A stretch of DNA of 64,000 bases from an uncultured virus (IMG/VR IMGVR_UViG_2711768134_000006) (lineage: Duplodnaviria; Heunggongvirae; Uroviricota; Caudoviricetes): IMG/VR virus record IMGVR_UViG_2711768134_000006, one strand, 5' to 3'. This document shows positions 31,000 to 38,346 of this stretch, one piece after another. The translations under genes and the position numbers were made by a program. A model generated the notes under the pieces. That model was given only the letters and a program-made list of their open reading frames with translations, was not told where the DNA came from and ran no database searches. How positions within the stretch are numbered: the first letter of the stretch is position 1; each line of letters starts with the position of its first letter.

Positions 31000-31043
31000 G
31001 GAGATATAGGAGATTATTAATGGTTCGATTCCATTAATCTCCA
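31000..31043 (+). pseudogene. tRNA-like minihelix (acceptor stem and T arm only)
   Basis: GGAGATT-att-AATGG-TTCGATT-CCATT-AATCTCC-A. Confidence 0.55.
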
Positions 31044-31053
31044 TCTTTTAAGC

Positions 31054-31098
31054 AAAAAGAAAGCACATGTCGTGAGATAGCAGTAAGTCTTTCTTTTT
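31054..31098 (+). ncRNA. Repeated structured RNA motif, copy 1
   Basis: AGAAAG-CACATGTCGTGAGATAGCAGTAAGT-CTTTCT; second copy at 33055. Confidence 0.6.
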
Positions 31099-31127
31099 CT
31101 TTTTATTAAGAAAGAGAGGATGATATC

Positions 31128-32054
31128 ATAGAAGAAATAAATATAAAAGAAGTAAGCAAGATAATATGTGTTAGTGAAAATACGTTATATAAAGATTTTA
31201 AAAAATATGCTTCTAAATTAGAAGAAAATAATATTTTTTATGATGGAAAAGGTAAAAAAAGAAAGTTTTATAGAAAAAAAATAAAAGACAGTGAATATAT
31301 AGCATATGATATTTTTAAACAAATTGCTTATAATGTCTGGAAATTTGATAGTAAAGTAGATATAAATAAATTATTATATTACATGGCTGTGATTCTAACT
31401 ATGCAAGATATAAAGGGGAATATGAGTATATTATCATCAAATCAAATTGCAAATATAGTAGGAGTGGACAAAAATACCATATCAAGATATAAAAATAAAT
31501 TAATTAAAAATAATATCTTTATGCCCTCTAATCTATCTAAAACAGTTACATATGCTACATTTAAAGATATAGATGTCTTAAGTATTAAAAGTGAATTAAT
31601 TCCACATAAAGAAAATTGTAAAAATAGAGTAAATCAAGATAAAGAATTAGATAATTTTAGATATCAGGTGAGACTGGTAGCAGATAAAAATATAAACTTT
31701 AAAAGAAAAGACAATATTATAGTTGATAACAGTTTATATGAAGATTATCTAAATGCATGTAGAATTATAGCAAATACACCATTTTTAAAAGATAGAGAAA
31801 ATTATAATAGAGTAGTAAATATGGTAAAACATAATAAACATGAATTAAATGTAACTCAAAAAGATAAATACATAGCATTTAATGAATTTACAAGAGAAAT
31901 AGGATTGGTTAAATTATATCAAGTACATAAGACAGAATATAGAATCAATGTAATGAAAAATAAAGAGCTGTTAGATATAATTATCAAAGCTTTTAAGTAT
32001 AGAAATAATAATAGCAATATCAATAATAAACTAGTAAAATACAATTCATATTAA
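31128..32054 (+). CDS. Two-HTH DNA-binding protein (ATA-start extension of 31383..32054)
   Basis: Frame open from ATA 31128 behind AGAGGATGAT; IKEVSKIICVSENTLYK and SNQIANIVGVDKNTISRY. Confidence 0.65.
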   Translation: MEEINIKEVSKIICVSENTLYKDFKKYASKLEENNIFYDGKGKKRKFYRKKIKDSEYIAYDIFKQIAYNVWKFDSKVDINKLLYYMAVILTMQDIKGNMSILSSNQIANIVGVDKNTISRYKNKLIKNNIFMPSNLSKTVTYATFKDIDVLSIKSELIPHKENCKNRVNQDKELDNFRYQVRLVADKNINFKRKDNIIVDNSLYEDYLNACRIIANTPFLKDRENYNRVVNMVKHNKHELNVTQKDKYIAFNEFTREIGLVKLYQVHKTEYRINVMKNKELLDIIIKAFKYRNNNSNINNKLVKYNSY

Positions 32055-32069
32055 TTTTTCCCCTCACTC

Positions 32070-32101
32070 GCGTATTGATATATATATTTATATAAGTATG
32101 C
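32070..32101. repeat. 13-6-13 palindromic site, copy B (inverted vs 24443-24474)
   Basis: GCGTATTGATATA-TATATT-TATATAAGTATGC. Confidence 0.75.
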
Positions 32102-32145
32102 AGGTGAGGGGATTTTTTGAAAGATATATTTTAAAGGTGACTATT

Positions 32146-32700
32146 ATGAATTTACAATACTTTGAAAAGGATAAATATTATGTTTATAAACATTACATTA
32201 TAGACCATGATGGTAAAGAGAATGTCTTTTATATTGGTAAAGGAATAGGAGACAGAATTTATAATCAAATCAGAAATGAAAAGTGGGATAACATAGTAAA
32301 GAGTAATAACAATAATTATAATGTTGATATTATTAAATATTTTGAAAATGAAAAAGATGCATTAGATTATGAGGTAAAATTGCAATTATATTATTGGAAT
32401 AATGGACAATGTAAAGGTTGTGCTGATATAGATGCAGCAATAGGTAAAGAAAAAATAAAGAAACAAAATAAATTATTAAAAGAAGGATTGGTTATACAAG
32501 ATGACTATTTAAATAAATGGTTATTTAAATATGAATTGGAAAATATCATCAATACATATGAGTTAAAAGATAATAAAAGAAGAGTAATGTCTGCTAATAA
32601 ATTCATTAATTATTTAAAAGAATGTAATTATAGGATTGAAAAAATTAGAAAAAGAACAAAAAAGAAACAAGAAACATTATATAAAATATGTAATAAGTAG
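32146..32700 (+). CDS. GIY-YIG-like endonuclease
   Basis: YYVYKH...VFYIGKG..DR...E..ALDYE. Confidence 0.7.
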   Translation: MNLQYFEKDKYYVYKHYIIDHDGKENVFYIGKGIGDRIYNQIRNEKWDNIVKSNNNNYNVDIIKYFENEKDALDYEVKLQLYYWNNGQCKGCADIDAAIGKEKIKKQNKLLKEGLVIQDDYLNKWLFKYELENIINTYELKDNKRRVMSANKFINYLKECNYRIEKIRKRTKKKQETLYKICNK

Positions 32701-32720
32701 GATTTTATAATTATAATAAT

Positions 32721-33097
32721 AAATCACAAGGCTTTAGCCGAAGTGATACCAAAGAACGTGAGTGATGCGGTAGATATTACTAACGCCTTCACTTCGTTCA
32801 GTTGTTATCCTCAGCTAAAGCTTCGGATTTACTATTTTTAATTTAATACATATGGGTTAAAAGCCCCTTCATATGGTGACATATGGTAGCAAACCTAGAA
32901 TATGCTAAAAGTTAATACAATTAGCAGAGATAGCTCGTTTTGAGAAGCTCTGGTGACTAATAATAGGTATCTTACAATATAAGATGATGATGTCACTAAA
33001 AATATTAAACTACAACGTGAAATTTGTGGGATAATTACTCACCATTTCAGAACTGGAAGAAAGCACATGTCGTGAGATAGCAATAAGTCTTTCTTCC
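32721..33097 (+). ncRNA. Hairpin-dense intergenic region ending in motif copy 2 (33055-33097)
   Basis: ~110 nt nested hairpin 32721-32830 plus several further stems. Confidence 0.45.
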
Positions 33098-33134
33098 TTT
33101 TAAATAATATTTTAATTAAAAGGGAGATGTTTTT

Positions 33135-33752
33135 ATGGTTAAATATAATGTTCATAAAGCTTTAGCAGAAAAGAAGTTATTAGAAGATAAGATAGATAGA
33201 TGCATTAGTAATTTTAAAATTGTAGGTACTAAAAAAGGCTCTGATAAAAATGTATATGAAACAAAAACAAGTGTAGAAGATTTTAATGTAGAAGTTTCAA
33301 GTAAATACCAACAAATAGAAGATTTAATATATAATTATAACGCATTAGATAAAGCAATTAATATCTCTAATGCTATAACAAATGTTCAAATTGGTAATAA
33401 AAATTATACAGTTTTAGAAGCAATAAAAAGAAAAAATAGTATAGAATTAGATAAATCCTTGTTGAGACAAATGGTTAGTAACTATGATTGTATGATGTCT
33501 GAAGTAAATCGTAGAAATGAAGAAGTACAAAGAAATACAGATAAAATGTTTGAGGAAAAAGAAAAAAGTAAAGATGGAGCAGAATTTATTTCATTTTATA
33601 AAAAACAACAAGAATGGTCTTTAGTAGACCCTTTAAAAGTAAGAGAGAAAATAGAAAAGTTAAGGGATGAAATAGAAGAATTTGAAAAAGAAGTTGATTT
33701 TGCATTGAGTACATCAAATGCACTTACAATTATAGATGTAGATTTAAAATAG
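33135..33752 (+). CDS. DIP1984-like coiled-coil protein
   Basis: Two halves: VHKALAEKKLL/TVLEAIKRK and INISNAITNV/LSTSNALTII. Confidence 0.6.
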   Translation: MVKYNVHKALAEKKLLEDKIDRCISNFKIVGTKKGSDKNVYETKTSVEDFNVEVSSKYQQIEDLIYNYNALDKAINISNAITNVQIGNKNYTVLEAIKRKNSIELDKSLLRQMVSNYDCMMSEVNRRNEEVQRNTDKMFEEKEKSKDGAEFISFYKKQQEWSLVDPLKVREKIEKLRDEIEEFEKEVDFALSTSNALTIIDVDLK

Positions 33753-33774
33753 TCCTTAATTGGGCTATTTTTTA

Positions 33775-34072
33775 ATTTGCAGGTTAGGCGAATAACATAA
33801 ATTATAAGTTCCCATTTGATTTTGGGTTAAAAATCAAACTGCTTATATAAAAGTGATGGGTACATACAAACGAAACGATTGTACTGTATAAAAGAGAACA
33901 ATAGATATAAAGCTTAAAGTTAAAAATTCAAATATAAAATCTCAAGGATAAAAGATTAAATTATTAAAATAGTAAAAATAAAATAAAAAAGTTATAGAAA
34001 ATCCTTGATAAATGCTAAATGCGTTAACTTATATTAGCTATTGTTAGCTACAAGGCTGCCTAATTTGCAAAT
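33775..34072 (+). ncRNA. Candidate ~300 nt structured RNA with heptamer repeats
   Basis: 15 bp closing stem ATTTGCAGGTTAGGC/GCCTAATTTGCAAAT, nested helices, eight 7-nt units. Confidence 0.7.
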
Positions 34073-34124
34073 AAATATATTCCCAGTAGAGATATAGATA
34101 ACATAAAAATAAAGGAGAAAATAT

Positions 34125-34313
34125 ATGAAAAATAATAAAGGAACGATTTTAGAAAAATGTGAAGTAATAAAACAAGAAGATGGTACTTATAAATTTATAG
34201 AGCATACAAAAAATGGCGATAATGAAGTGTTATCTAGTGATGTTTTTGACCAGTATATTGGAAAAACAGATTTAAATATAACGATAAGATTAAGTGAAAC
34301 AATAGTCCAATAA
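34125..34313 (+). CDS. Small hypothetical protein
   Basis: AAGGAG RBS, 62 aa. Confidence 0.65.
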   Translation: MKNNKGTILEKCEVIKQEDGTYKFIEHTKNGDNEVLSSDVFDQYIGKTDLNITIRLSETIVQ

Positions 34314-34390
34314 ATCAATATTAGACTATTTATTTTTTTACTTAATATATTGATAATGATATTTATGTGATAAACAGGGAGATATTAAAT

Positions 34391-35584
34391 ATGGAAGACA
34401 TATTGAAGAAAAAAGAAGATGAGTCACTAGTTGACTATAGGATTAGAATACGACTGGCAAAGGTTAATAAAGAGATAGATTTGGATTGGGGAGAGATAGT
34501 TGAACTATTGGGGTTAGAATGTTCTCCAGACCATTGTAGGAAGGTTTCTTATGGGTTGAAAGAGGCTTTTGATTATCTTAATTCTAAAGTACAAGATAAT
34601 TCTGCTCAAGAAGAGATTGATAAAATAAATGAGAAAATATTAGAGCTGAAAAAGATAAAAGTACAGTTATCTGATGAAAGGTCATTAGTAAATAAGAAAA
34701 TAAGAGAATATTCAAGAATAGATAATATAATTGATTTATTTAATAATAAAATAGATGATATATCGCTCCATAAGCCATTTCTAAACGATTCTAGTTACAA
34801 ATGCTATGAATCTTCAAATCAAGAGGCTATTATGCTAATTTCAGACATACACTATGGATTAGAGACTATTAATGCATTTAATAGATATAATTCAGAAATA
34901 TTCAAGATAAGAATACAATATTTAAAAGATAAAATTATTGAATATAGTAAGTTGCATAAGATTAATAGACTGCATGTAATGCTACTTGGAGATTTAATCT
35001 CTGGCCACATACATAATTCTATAAGATTAGAAAATAGAGAAAATATAGTTGAACAAATTATAGAAGTATCTGAAATACTTAGTGAATTTATATATGAATT
35101 ATCTAAAGAAATTGATAAAATTATTGTTTATTCAGTTGGTGGAAATCATGATAGGGTTCTTCCTAAAAAAGATGAAAATTTAGATAAAGATAATTTTACA
35201 CTATTAATAGATGAATATATAAAACTAAGAATTAAAAGTTTAGATAATGTAATATTTCAAGAGAACATATATGATAATGACATAATAGTAACTAGAATAT
35301 GTGGAAATACATGTTTCGCAGTACATGGAGATAAAGATAAAATGTTTACAGCCATTCCTAAACTGACCTCTCTTATAAAATCAATTCCTGATTATATTTT
35401 CATAGCTCATCTACACAATTGTAAAGAAGATAGTTATGGAGAAAGTGAAATTATTGTAAATGGAAGTTTTTCTGGAACAGATACATATGCTAAGAATCTA
35501 AGATTAAGTTCATATGCAATGCAAAAATTAATGATATTTAATGATGATGGAAGATTATGTACTTATAATATTAAGCTTAAATAG
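34391..35584 (+). CDS. Calcineurin-like metallophosphoesterase
   Basis: SDIH, GD, GNHD, HGD, HLH. Confidence 0.9.
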   Translation: MEDILKKKEDESLVDYRIRIRLAKVNKEIDLDWGEIVELLGLECSPDHCRKVSYGLKEAFDYLNSKVQDNSAQEEIDKINEKILELKKIKVQLSDERSLVNKKIREYSRIDNIIDLFNNKIDDISLHKPFLNDSSYKCYESSNQEAIMLISDIHYGLETINAFNRYNSEIFKIRIQYLKDKIIEYSKLHKINRLHVMLLGDLISGHIHNSIRLENRENIVEQIIEVSEILSEFIYELSKEIDKIIVYSVGGNHDRVLPKKDENLDKDNFTLLIDEYIKLRIKSLDNVIFQENIYDNDIIVTRICGNTCFAVHGDKDKMFTAIPKLTSLIKSIPDYIFIAHLHNCKEDSYGESEIIVNGSFSGTDTYAKNLRLSSYAMQKLMIFNDDGRLCTYNIKLK

Positions 35585-35726
35585 AGCTAATTATTAAAGG
35601 ACTAATACGATAATATTCCATCATTATGATATGGTATTAGTCCTTTAATGGGCTAAATTCAATCTCCCTTCTGAGGTCAGTTTCATGCTGACCTCTCTTT
35701 TTTCATCTCAAAAGGAGAGTGATAAA

Positions 35727-36587
35727 ATGGCTAGAAAAGGTAAAATTAAATGTTCTTGTTGTGGAGAAGAAAAGTCAGCAGCAAGAGATTTTTATAGTAG
35801 CTCTAGTAAATTACATAAGAGCTTAAGTACTTTTCCCATGTGTAAAAATTGCGTTGAAGAATTATATGATGAGTTAGTTTACAAGTATGCTGGGGATAAA
35901 AAAATAGCAGCAAAGAGACTATTTGTAATGTTAGATGTTTATTATGATGAAGACTTATATAATACATGTATTAACAAAGAAAACAAAGGAAAGTCTAAAT
36001 GGTTAGGCGAGTACATGAAAACTAAAGCAAATGCTAGATATGTAAGTAAATCAAGTCTTGATAATATTAATTCAAAAAATCTAGTTGAAGATGATATTGA
36101 TTCTGATTTTAAATTAAATGAAACAAAAATAAATAATGATATGGTCGAAAGATGGGGAGCAGGACTAAGAAAAGAAGATTATATGTTTTTAGAAAATAAA
36201 TTTAATGAGTTTTCTATGGCATATCAATGTAAAAGACCTGCTGAAAAAATGTTGTTAGAACAAATTTCTAAATGTTTATTAAAGAGTGATGAAGCACTAA
36301 GAAATGGTGATGCTACAGGGTTTGAAAAAATGAATACCTTAATATCAAAACTTATGAATGATGCAAATATAAAACCTATTCAAGAAGCCAGTTTAGCAGA
36401 AAATGAAACGATTACATGGGGTACATGGATTGATAAAATAGAAAATTACAGACCTATAGGAGAGCCTTCAGAACAATTCAAAGATGTAGATAAAATAAAA
36501 ACATATATTAATAAGTGGTTTATAGGACAAATGAGAAAAGTATTCGATTTAGCTAGTGAGGATAATCCAAATGATGACCAAGACTAG
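35727..36587 (+). CDS. Probable terminase small subunit
   Basis: N-terminal Zn finger; immediately upstream of TerL. Confidence 0.6.
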   Translation: MARKGKIKCSCCGEEKSAARDFYSSSSKLHKSLSTFPMCKNCVEELYDELVYKYAGDKKIAAKRLFVMLDVYYDEDLYNTCINKENKGKSKWLGEYMKTKANARYVSKSSLDNINSKNLVEDDIDSDFKLNETKINNDMVERWGAGLRKEDYMFLENKFNEFSMAYQCKRPAEKMLLEQISKCLLKSDEALRNGDATGFEKMNTLISKLMNDANIKPIQEASLAENETITWGTWIDKIENYRPIGEPSEQFKDVDKIKTYINKWFIGQMRKVFDLASEDNPNDDQD

Positions 36588-38346
36588 AAAGCTAAATAAT
36601 AACGAAATTAACTCAGATAAAAATAAAGCTCTTGAAGAAGGAATAATTGAATGGACTAAGTTCTATAGAGAAAATCCACATAGATTTTGTATTGATTATT
36701 TTGGTCTTAATTTATATTTAGTTCAAATTATTCTTATATATATGTTTGATAAATGTAATTATGCGATGCTTATATGTGCCAGAGGGTTTGCAAAGAGCTG
36801 GATTGCTGCTGTATATGCATGTTGTAGAGCTGTTTTATATCCAAATTCTAAAATTGGTATAGCTGCATTTACTAAATCACAAGCAGAACTTATTATAAGA
36901 GAAAAGATAGAAAAAGAATTAGTAAAACAATCTCCTATGTTAGCTAGAGAGATTAAAAAGATAGAGTATAATAATAAATTTTCTAAAGTAACATTTCATA
37001 ATGGAAGCACTATAGAAGCTATAGTCTCAAATGAGCAATCAAGAGGTTTCCGTTTCAATATTCTTATTGTAGATGAATTTAGATTAGTAAAAAAAGAAAT
37101 ACAAGATAGGATTCTTAAGCCATTTCTAAATGTAAGTAGAAATCTAAAGTTTAAAAAAGATGGAAAATATGAAGATTACCCTCCGGAGCCTAATAAAGAA
37201 TTATATTTAAGTAGTGCATGGTTTAGGATGCATGAAGCATATGACAAATTTAAATTGTATGTGAAAGATATGGTAGATGGTAGAGATAAATTTGTACTTA
37301 ATTGTAATTATAAACTTTCTCTTCATCATGGAATATTAGATAAAGAAAGAGCAGATGAAATGAAAAGAGAAATGGATGCTGTTTCTTGGATTATGGAGAT
37401 GGAATCACTTTTCTTTGGGGAAAATGAAGATGCTATATTTAAATCATCTTATGTGAATCCATGTAGAACATTAAAAAATCCATTTTATCCTCCAACAGAT
37501 TTAGAAATATTATCTGCTAAAAATGGAAAAGTTAAGTGTAATTTACAAAAAAGAAAAGGTGAGTTGAGGATAATTTCTGCTGACATTGCTGTTGCAGAAG
37601 GAGACAATAATGATAACTCAGTGTATACATGTTGGAGGTTATTGCCTGAAAAAGATTATTATGAAAGAATGGTTGTTCATATAGAATCTCATAATGGTAT
37701 GAAGCCAGACAAACAAGCAATAAGATTAAAACAATTATTCTTTGATTTTGAAACTGATTTCTTAGTTATAGATACTCAAGGGGTAGGCCAAAGTGTTTTA
37801 TCTGATTTACTTAGGGTTAATTATGATGATGCTAGAAATAAAGAATATAATGCGTTTTCTCATGCTAATACAAATCATTTACATAATAATTTTATTACAA
37901 AAGAGAATTATCCAGTTATATTTGAGATTAAGGCATATGGACAAATAAATCATGATTGTATAATTGGCTTACTTGATGTATTTCTAAAAAATAGAATAAA
38001 GTTACCAATAAATGATGTAGAGGCTAATGACATGTTAAGTAGTACATCTGGATATGCAAAGAAAAATTATACAGACCAAGCGAGAATGATATTACCATAC
38101 AAACAAACTACACTACTTGTAAACGAATTAATAAACTTAGAAACTGTTAAAAATGATGGTCAAAAGTGGCTTAAGGTCAAAGAAAAGGGAAAAGCAAGAA
38201 AAGATAGATATTCTTCCTTAGCATATGGAAATTATCTAGCAAATTTACTAGATGGAGAATTAAAAAAGAGAAATAGTAAGAACAGTGGACAAATAATTTC
38301 ATTCTGGTCAGGAGGTGGAAACCATAATAGAACTCAAAGGAGATAA
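36571..38346 (+). CDS. Terminase large subunit
   Basis: ARGFAKS Walker A, ILIVDE Walker B, ADIA/IDTQGVG/KDRYS nuclease motifs. Confidence 0.9.
   Translation: MMTKTRKLNNNEINSDKNKALEEGIIEWTKFYRENPHRFCIDYFGLNLYLVQIILIYMFDKCNYAMLICARGFAKSWIAAVYACCRAVLYPNSKIGIAAFTKSQAELIIREKIEKELVKQSPMLAREIKKIEYNNKFSKVTFHNGSTIEAIVSNEQSRGFRFNILIVDEFRLVKKEIQDRILKPFLNVSRNLKFKKDGKYEDYPPEPNKELYLSSAWFRMHEAYDKFKLYVKDMVDGRDKFVLNCNYKLSLHHGILDKERADEMKREMDAVSWIMEMESLFFGENEDAIFKSSYVNPCRTLKNPFYPPTDLEILSAKNGKVKCNLQKRKGELRIISADIAVAEGDNNDNSVYTCWRLLPEKDYYERMVVHIESHNGMKPDKQAIRLKQLFFDFETDFLVIDTQGVGQSVLSDLLRVNYDDARNKEYNAFSHANTNHLHNNFITKENYPVIFEIKAYGQINHDCIIGLLDVFLKNRIKLPINDVEANDMLSSTSGYAKKNYTDQARMILPYKQTTLLVNELINLETVKNDGQKWLKVKEKGKARKDRYSSLAYGNYLANLLDGELKKRNSKNSGQIISFWSGGGNHNRTQRR

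Follow-up and report, generated by a model that had tools for sequence, protein, structure and literature searches.

The gene for a 205-amino-acid (aa) helical protein, together with the 304-nucleotide (nt) structured RNA that follows it on the same strand, is a widespread protein–RNA module, apparently undescribed so far; it is analysed here in a stretch of 64,000 nt (the window, always meaning this whole stretch) from the uncultured virus IMGVR_UViG_2711768134_000006 of IMG/VR (Caudoviricetes). In phages, Bacilli and cyanobacteria alike, gene and RNA are passed on together, and nearly every examined locus of the protein family carries an elaborate RNA downstream, whose full form was not found described in a literature search. 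Because the link between the RNA and the gene upstream of it persists across great evolutionary divergence, a two-part protein–RNA system is the natural reading, and we give a probability of about one half to a module in which the protein would bind the 7-nt repeats (heptamers) of the RNA, yielding a defined ribonucleoprotein that acts on RNA or translation.

The original prediction, made on the letters of the window, had placed a closed structured RNA with phased heptamers after the stop codon of this gene, and had set beforehand, as its test, the presence of conserved covarying structure and of heptamer phasing downstream of the homologues; both were found there.

Linkage between the gene and the RNA

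Regarding the protein side, 78 viral and 80 genome loci were fetched, and 137 downstream stretches, window included, were searched. The gene is followed in the homologue loci by a stretch of a few hundred bases poor in open reading frames (ORFs), and the nucleotide sequences of these stretches remain alike when protein identity has dropped to about 35%. A profile built iteratively with nhmmer on the 3' part of the RNA matched 124 of the 137 stretches, on the + strand and 170–450 nt past the stop; R1, a covariance model of the 3' part, recovered 8 of the 13 loci missed by the profile at E ≤ 6e-4 and 3 more weakly (E 0.05–0.14), and only L127 and the short contig L148 matched neither. The RNA accompanies the protein gene in 132/137 loci at significance, and in 135/137 when the weak matches are included. 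Phage phiCD211, which lies outside the R1 training alignment, scores 50 bits, next to the value for the window given in Table 1.

As for the RNA side, one copy occurs in the phage genome and one in each of five host genomes, at the gene; a blind scan of 151 Bacilli genomes found the RNA in 4, and all nine RNA loci (the phage, the five hosts and three new Bacilli) are directly preceded by the gene, in the same orientation. A scan of viral contigs with a DNA pattern gave at least 117 matches, and among the 80 matches listed 19 pass R1 at E ≤ 1e-3, with the gene upstream in 19/19; 2 more of these 80 have the gene with an RNA below threshold, and the remaining 59 have neither and look like chance pattern matches.

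A tblastn search made with one family member found 481 phage records. T5_ev219, 4MG, BCP8-2 (Bacillus) and AM4 (Lactococcus) have an unannotated gap of 389–504 nt after the gene, with closing helices of 13–21 positions, and heptamer runs are present in both of the gaps, of these four, that were read out. R1 falls at the expected place in each, with E-values of 1.3e-7 for BCP8-2, 3.9e-5 for AM4, 0.056 for 4MG and 0.33 for T5_ev219; in 4MG, 4 nt separate the end of the RNA from a tRNA-Thr gene. Conservation of the T5-type gene and RNA extends to 441 records, and covers at least 80% of the length in 438, an occurrence that makes the pair directly testable in E. coli with T5-like phages; the module is also found in rV5-like, Bacillus and Lactococcus phages.

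Structure and conservation of the RNA

The + strand of the 372-nt gap after the gene folds with a minimum free energy (MFE) of -71.0 kcal/mol and a z score of -3.85, with 0/100 shuffles equally stable; the z score of the - strand is -1.95. This fold, the closing helix P1 and the covariation in the family bear out the predicted closed, structured RNA on the + strand. All the complementarities listed in the original prediction are present in the sequence, as seen by direct check and by a repeat search, and its closing helix of 15 bp can be extended to 19 positions (Table 1), made of 18 pairs, 3 of them G-U, and one mismatch according to the helix finder. The repeat search lists the inverted arms as 33767-33789/34058-34080, and further inside TTTGATTTT/AAAATCAAA (9/9), AACAATAGATA/TAGCTATTGTT, and TCAAGGAT/ATCCTTGA (8/8).

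The proposed inner helices fared less evenly: their letters are complementary, but two of them are lineage-specific or contradicted by the covariation of the family. The helix CCCAT/ATGGG can form on paper, but it is absent from the single-sequence MFE structure, which has the pairing UAUAAGU/GCUUAUA instead. The helix TCAAGGAT/ATCCTTGA uses the 5' strand of Pa, and so competes with a helix that covaries; it was rejected as a family feature and is lineage-specific at best, because a comparable pairing exists in only 7 of the 87 rows of the RNA alignment A2. In close phiCD211-like relatives just 16 of the 304 columns vary, which is not enough for a test of the hairpins specific to the window.

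In the distinct RNAs of the family, a closing helix of 9–20 positions runs from just after the stop, at 1–30 nt in most relatives, to the bases that follow a conserved GGCUG, and the RNA is 232–472 nt long; the letters of the helix vary by lineage, being UGCUGGUCACUCG/UGAGUGGUCAGCA in cyanobacteria, UUGUUAGUUAGUCG/UGACUAGCUAACAA in Bacillus, and UUAAUUUGCAGGUUAGGCG/UGCCUAAUUUGCAAAUAAA in the window. To build A2, six cyanobacterial loci in which the helix finder failed were dropped and near-duplicates were thinned from 104 to 87 rows. Over 20 pairs of this alignment, 83.4% of the cells are paired versus 64.7% in shuffles, and the covariation score is 0.501 versus 0.183, a value that none of 500 shuffles reached; slid partner columns gave at most 0.19. 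All 12 aligned pairs of P1 have changes on both sides across the family. Helix Pa, of 5 bp (CC-N-N-G with C-N-N-GG), is paired in 99.8% of its cells, with four of the five pairs changed on both sides and four pair types at the central positions, counted at one of them as AU 45, UA 27, CG 9 and GC 6. Pb covaries in three of its pairs, and Pc has well-paired columns with several pair types, its final columns lying outside the pair-count analysis. When every pair of columns was scanned for additional covariation, for example from a pseudoknot involving the 5' strand, only noise appeared outside the known helices. Finally, 158 of the 1691 helix cells are G-U (summed from the pair table), a proportion that fits an RNA read from the + strand.

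The most conserved part is the heptamer block, with seven AAAGNUY units and no insertion or deletion in 87/87 rows; the first A is kept in 87/87 rows for six units and in 86/87 for one, the second A in 73–87 of the 87 rows, and the U at position 6 in 74–86. In the window the lag-7 identity over block 1 is 0.64, reached by 0/5000 dinucleotide shuffles, or by 2/5000 if the best of the lags 4 to 12 is taken; TRF reports low-scoring periods of 14 and 8 only. The phased heptamers that had been proposed are real, with seven units in block 1. Four to six further units, less regular, form a second run that continues to the 3' domain. The window has the R1 match, the closing helix and the seven AAAGNUY units, and belongs to the RNA family defined here.

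The variable domain cannot be aligned among relatives, which carry other hairpins or tRNA-like inserts in its place; a predicted tRNA lies inside it in 8 of 103 loci, and in many phages it holds a hairpin that Rfam models as part of RAGATH-27. In L054, L128 and L156 this domain (A2 columns ~100-340) contains a T-arm-like GGTTCGAnTCC followed by a D-arm-like TAGCTCAGnnGGTAGAGCA, in reversed order, which points to tRNA-like inserts that are permuted or anchored by their anticodon stem.

A short GC-rich hairpin separates the stop from the closing helix in several lineages (L311:2636-2668; the first 40 nt after the stop in L140; the window, Table 1), and might determine how much RNA is made relative to the protein message. 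In RNA runs of two studies, 0.58–0.63 of the sampled words occurred as contigs; these shares are not used as evidence.

Table 1. Features of the locus in the window; A2 is the alignment of 87 RNA rows, R1 the covariance model of the 3' part
Feature	Position	Strand	Remarks
Sigma/LuxR-like gene and HU gene			Upstream of the 205-aa gene
Gene for the 205-aa helical protein	33135-33752	+	ORF; phrog_1491; remotely DIP1984/3KDQ-like; constant partner of the RNA
Terminator-like hairpin overlapping the stop codon	33746-33771	+	10 pairs, then a T run; not a general feature of the family
Whole structured RNA, 304 nt	33772-34075	+	Bounds set by the closing helix; aligned with 86 relatives in A2
Closing helix P1, 5' arm	33772-33790	+	Pairs with 34057-34075
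Closing helix P1, 3' arm	34057-34075	+	Pairs with 33772-33790
Conserved 5' strand GAAUAACAUAAAUUAUAAG	33790-33808	+	A2; degenerate counterpart of the RAGATH-27 core GAAAACUUUAAACUAUAA
Variable domain with two lineage-specific hairpins, UUUGAUUUU/AAAAUCAAA and UACAUACAA/UUGUACUGUA	33811-33889	+	Folding, repeat search
Heptamer block 1, seven AAAGNUY units in strict phase	33909-33957	+	A2 row counts; lag-7 test
Linker and second, looser A-rich heptamer run leading to GAAAAUCC	33958-34002	+	A2; TRF period 8 at 33949-33985
Conserved 3' domain	33989-34072	+	R1 49 bits, E 2.3e-7 (window sequence in the training alignment)
Helix Pa, CCUUG with CAAGG	34003-34007 with 34051-34055	+	Inner helices Pb and Pc in the same 3' domain
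372-nt gap, then 62-aa ORF, metallophosphoesterase ("exonuclease"), terminase and portal genes			Downstream of the 205-aa gene

The 205-aa protein

The protein matches the phrog_1491 profile across residues 1–203 (E 3.2e-72). Its homologues, from which alignment A1 was built, extend down to about 30% identity, and an exhaustive profile search returned 3357 cluster representatives at E ≤ 1e-3, of which 2582 reach E ≤ 1e-10; almost all have 203–228 aa. The AlphaFold model (pLDDT 88.5) agrees with the helical protein that had been expected: it has long helices and, at one end, a small four-stranded sheet made up of the N-terminus together with the strands after two conserved SNAxTxV motifs. These motifs are the sole detectable internal repeat, of 18 residues (70–87 versus 186–203; hhalign probability 22%), so that of the internal duplication claimed for the protein the motif repeat stands, and nothing beyond it.

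The resemblance to DIP1984, which the original prediction had put forward, is real but remote. Over its full length the predicted fold is closest to 3kdq (Foldseek rank 1, E 8e-3), a Corynebacterium diphtheriae protein of unknown function that we take to be the DIP1984 protein; VIA gave Z 11.1 against it, with 150/152 residues aligned and the next row at 7.7, and because the model is helical a Z below ~13 needs caution. The profile comparison with 3kdq is weak (E 0.08), with an SN-x-x-T motif common to both. On the other hand, the phage protein is ~50 residues longer, and the NCBIfam model DIP1984_fam (NF038048) scores it at 16.9 bits (E 0.0055), far under the curated cut-off of 70 bits, which leaves it outside that family. 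Pfam found no family at E ≤ 0.01 except a sub-threshold DUF3450, PADLOC no defence-system match for the locus, and the ESM Atlas only clusters labelled "hypothetical", with no functional lead.

The phrog_1491 label is "tail fiber protein", and this product name has been copied through many phage records of the family (481 tblastn phage records). A role in the tail fibre is without support in this analysis: the location in tRNA arrays, the stand-alone chromosomal copies and the lack of any fibre-like fold match argue against it, and the present finding would correct this widely copied annotation.

Genomic context of the module

Arrays of tRNA genes are a common location of the gene, which shares their strand. 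Among 103 distinct loci, 64 have at least one tRNA within about 4 kb and 51 have three or more; a same-strand tRNA stands ≤200 nt upstream of the gene in 28, and ≤200 nt after the RNA in 35, 10 of them at 2–13 nt. The neighbour genes include those for RtcB, a kinase–phosphatase–RNA ligase fusion, KptA, Macro, NADAR, PARG, PhoH, PemK/MazF, SPFH and ClpP. In cyanobacteria the module sits in arrays of 20–30 tRNA genes, with PARG directly downstream. According to the available part of PMC8421152, cyanobacterial tRNA arrays contain embedded hypothetical genes and are induced by translation inhibitors, and long tRNA operons are linked to survival under translational stress; that part holds no description of this RNA.

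Some loci have other features of their own. In two phage contigs, PemK/MazF-type toxin genes lie 1.2–1.8 kb upstream of the module (L064:1838-2251 and L070:2378-2791), and the latter locus has the kinase–phosphatase–RNA ligase fusion downstream of the module. Suppressor-type tRNAs are predicted in phage arrays near the module at L063:6286-6360 and L079:3829-3900, with the anticodons CUA (called tRNA-Pyl) and UUA (called tRNA-Stop). At L152:6746-6801, in a cyanobacterial tRNA array, 56 nt match positions 1093–1148 of the 23S rRNA model with 52.1 bits, above the gathering score; this is an isolated look-alike of an rRNA fragment among tRNA genes.

Comparison with known RNAs and systems

The original prediction had also proposed a search of Rfam for a known family, which gave nothing relevant in the window: across the RNA, Rfam 15 returned only sbrA, at chance level (33709-33777, E 0.75, 21.2 bits versus a gathering score of 45). 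On the relatives, Rfam found tRNA, RAGATH-27, int-alpA and one rRNA fragment only.

RAGATH-27 (RF03100) is the point of contact with the catalogued RNAs. In relatives it corresponds to the first ~86 nt of the RNA, right behind the stop codon of the homologous gene; L099, for instance, reaches 90.3 bits against the gathering score of 76.1. The model has no match at E ≤ 10 in window positions 31000-37000, and so stays below that score; the conserved 5' strand of the window (Table 1), also directly after the phrog_1491 stop, aligns in A2 with the GAAAAC..UAAAC core. A 5' profile of RAGATH-27 type matches 57/137 loci, none of them cyanobacterial. RF03100 differs in being a short hairpin with conserved single strands, without closing helix, heptamer array or 3' domain. 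What has been catalogued so far is therefore the 5' part of some members only, and the present analysis extends this orphan Rfam motif into a complete RNA. A full-text literature search found no paper on RAGATH-27, nor any description of the whole RNA, of the heptamer array or of the protein partner, the paper that introduced the motif lying outside its coverage; for DIP1984 the literature gave only an unrelated match. The available part of PMC5786514 mentions no non-coding or intergenic feature at this place.

As for the other large RNAs, ROOL and GOLLD are, in the accessible part of the literature, structured RNAs of unknown function carried by phages, as here; no Rfam match links them to this RNA, which is smaller and has a repeat array and an obligate protein-gene partner. 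ROOL and GOLLD often lie beside tRNA genes.

Regarding the heptamers, several proteins read phased short RNA repeats, namely TRAP on the trp leader, HutP on the hut mRNA, and CsrA on CsrB; TRAP sites are (G/U)AG triplets spaced by 2–3 nt. The common trait is a set of short, even, single-stranded repeats beside a structured RNA, suggesting multivalent protein binding. Here, instead, the units are 7-nt AAAGNUY, fixed at seven, and they belong to an RNA that follows its partner gene and whose ends pair in a long helix; Pfam relates the protein to none of those families, TRAP included. The operator of T4 gene 32 joins a structured element to an A/U-rich tract with UAAA-like repeats, coated cooperatively by a protein with a site of ~7 nt, and resembles the present RNA in having a repeat-bearing A/U-rich tract beside a structured element; that operator lies in the 5' leader of its own mRNA and regulates translation, whereas the present array follows the gene, as part of a large closed RNA.

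Proposed function and alternatives

Binding of the heptamers by the protein is a plausible inference. In the mechanism that we propose, the RNA would be made by read-through of the transcript of the protein and, within tRNA arrays, trimmed at the adjoining tRNAs; the protein would coat the single-stranded heptamer array repetitively, with one or two units per protein, and the closing helix and the 3' domain would hold the array and may nucleate the binding, giving a defined ribonucleoprotein. The resulting particle would act on RNA or translation in the conflict between phage and host or under translational stress, a role suggested by the position of the module among tRNA, RNA-repair and ADP-ribose-removing genes. 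If so, the module may reveal a new ribonucleoprotein linked to tRNA supply, to RNA repair or to the escape from tRNA-targeting defence.

It should be noted that several findings weigh against this mechanism. The Pfam and NCBIfam scans recognised no RNA-binding domain in the protein, and the terminator-like hairpin between gene and RNA in the window could uncouple the two. The heptamer phase is interrupted in T5-like and some Bacillus phages (the proteobacterial phages above and BCP8-2), so that the strict seven-by-seven rule holds for the 87 aligned rows and not for the whole family. As for the context, 39/103 loci have no tRNA nearby, and the chromosomal copies of Bacillus, Metabacillus, Exiguobacterium and Psychrobacillus stand alone; because these Bacilli copies adjoin unrelated genes, the association with tRNA and RNA repair is not universal.

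The RNA could act instead on another factor, as a decoy or sponge for a host or phage factor that reads A-rich 7-nt sites, for example a ribonuclease or an anticodon-loop enzyme, or as an RNA-only particle, while the protein would be a helper, or would work in the same pathway without coating the heptamers. We consider this rather unlikely, even if the heptamers, with their near-invariant first A, are more conserved than the protein, whose mean column identity is 53%, and even if the setting among tRNA and RNA-repair genes would suit it. Moreover, when the unit is read as N-U-Y-A-A-A-G it resembles, in our own reading, a 7-nt anticodon loop, and the first downstream tRNA is Leu(YAA) in 12/49 loci versus 55/633 tRNAs overall, an excess confounded by shared ancestry and synteny. 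The strict two-way linkage of RNA and gene is most simply explained by a direct interaction, and no conserved candidate for a third partner was found beside the module in 138 divergent loci; the 62-aa ORF that follows the RNA was tried for this part and rejected, having no homologue in them.

A further step along the same line, which we regard as quite improbable, would make the heptamer array a string of stem-less mimics of the anticodon loop, with the universal U33, a YAA anticodon (that of tRNA-Leu for UUR codons) and A37 in place. If true, RNA and protein together would divert or sense, as decoy or sensor, the nucleases or other enzymes attacking such loops, and would be a counter-measure to tRNA-targeting immunity, carried in phage tRNA islands, T5-like coliphages included, and in the stress-induced tRNA operons of cyanobacteria.

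It is also unlikely, somewhat more so than the action on another factor, that the RNA is a cis-acting 3' untranslated region of the mRNA of the protein, serving as message stabiliser or in autoregulation and having no independent function. The start of the closing helix so close to the stop in most loci does fit this explanation, which does not require a promoter, and promoter-like consensus sites number 11 versus a mean of 12.2 in shuffles. However, an RNA of 230–470 nt whose seven-unit array is invariant and whose 3' domain covaries, and which has lasted from cyanobacteria through to coliphages, goes far beyond the known 3' stabilisers, and bacterial translational control works at the 5' end.

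As for the RNA-antitoxin idea of the original prediction, it found no support in Pfam or PADLOC, and we judge it very improbable. In type III toxin–antitoxin systems (ToxIN, with a ToxN/AbiQ-like toxin) tandem repeats of ~34–45 nt lie upstream of the toxin gene. By analogy, the heptamers would neutralise a toxic protein, and this would explain the stand-alone copies in the chromosomes of Bacilli and the carriage by mobile elements; a repeat-bearing RNA does adjoin a small protein gene here, with a hairpin between the two in the window. Repeat unit size, gene order and protein fold all differ, though: the units are of 7 nt and downstream, and the predicted helical bundle with its small sheet has no nuclease-like match and belongs to no toxin or defence family.

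Finally, an element acting at the DNA level (origin iterons, a packaging site, or a recombination site with flanking inverted repeats) would account for AT-rich repeats within an inverted repeat upstream of the terminase genes, but it is already disfavoured to the point of being scarcely credible by the G-U cells in the helices, the better fold of the + strand, the constant orientation relative to the gene, and the occurrence within tRNA operons and chromosomes.

Setting in the window

The window belongs to a phiCD211-like phage of Clostridioides difficile: it is 100% identical to Clostridioides phage LIBA6276 over the compared region, and 94–98% identical to phiCD211, phiCDIF1296T and related C. 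difficile phages of ~131–134 kb. The genome of its virus record has 134,311 bases and direct terminal repeats.

ARAGORN found 0 tRNA or tmRNA genes in the whole window. In phiCD211 a tRNA-Ser(GCU) lies 55 nt upstream of the gene (L001:6133-6223), and the phage of the window is without any tRNA (cf. 32900-33134); the similarity of phiCD211 to the window starts only at ~33090.

Further upstream, at 32045-32121, between one ORF ending at 32054 and another starting at 32098, the window has a strong GC-rich palindromic hairpin (UCCCCUCAC...GUGAGGGGA). In Rfam it gave microRNA-family matches at chance level only, and it is probably a terminator or a regulatory hairpin.

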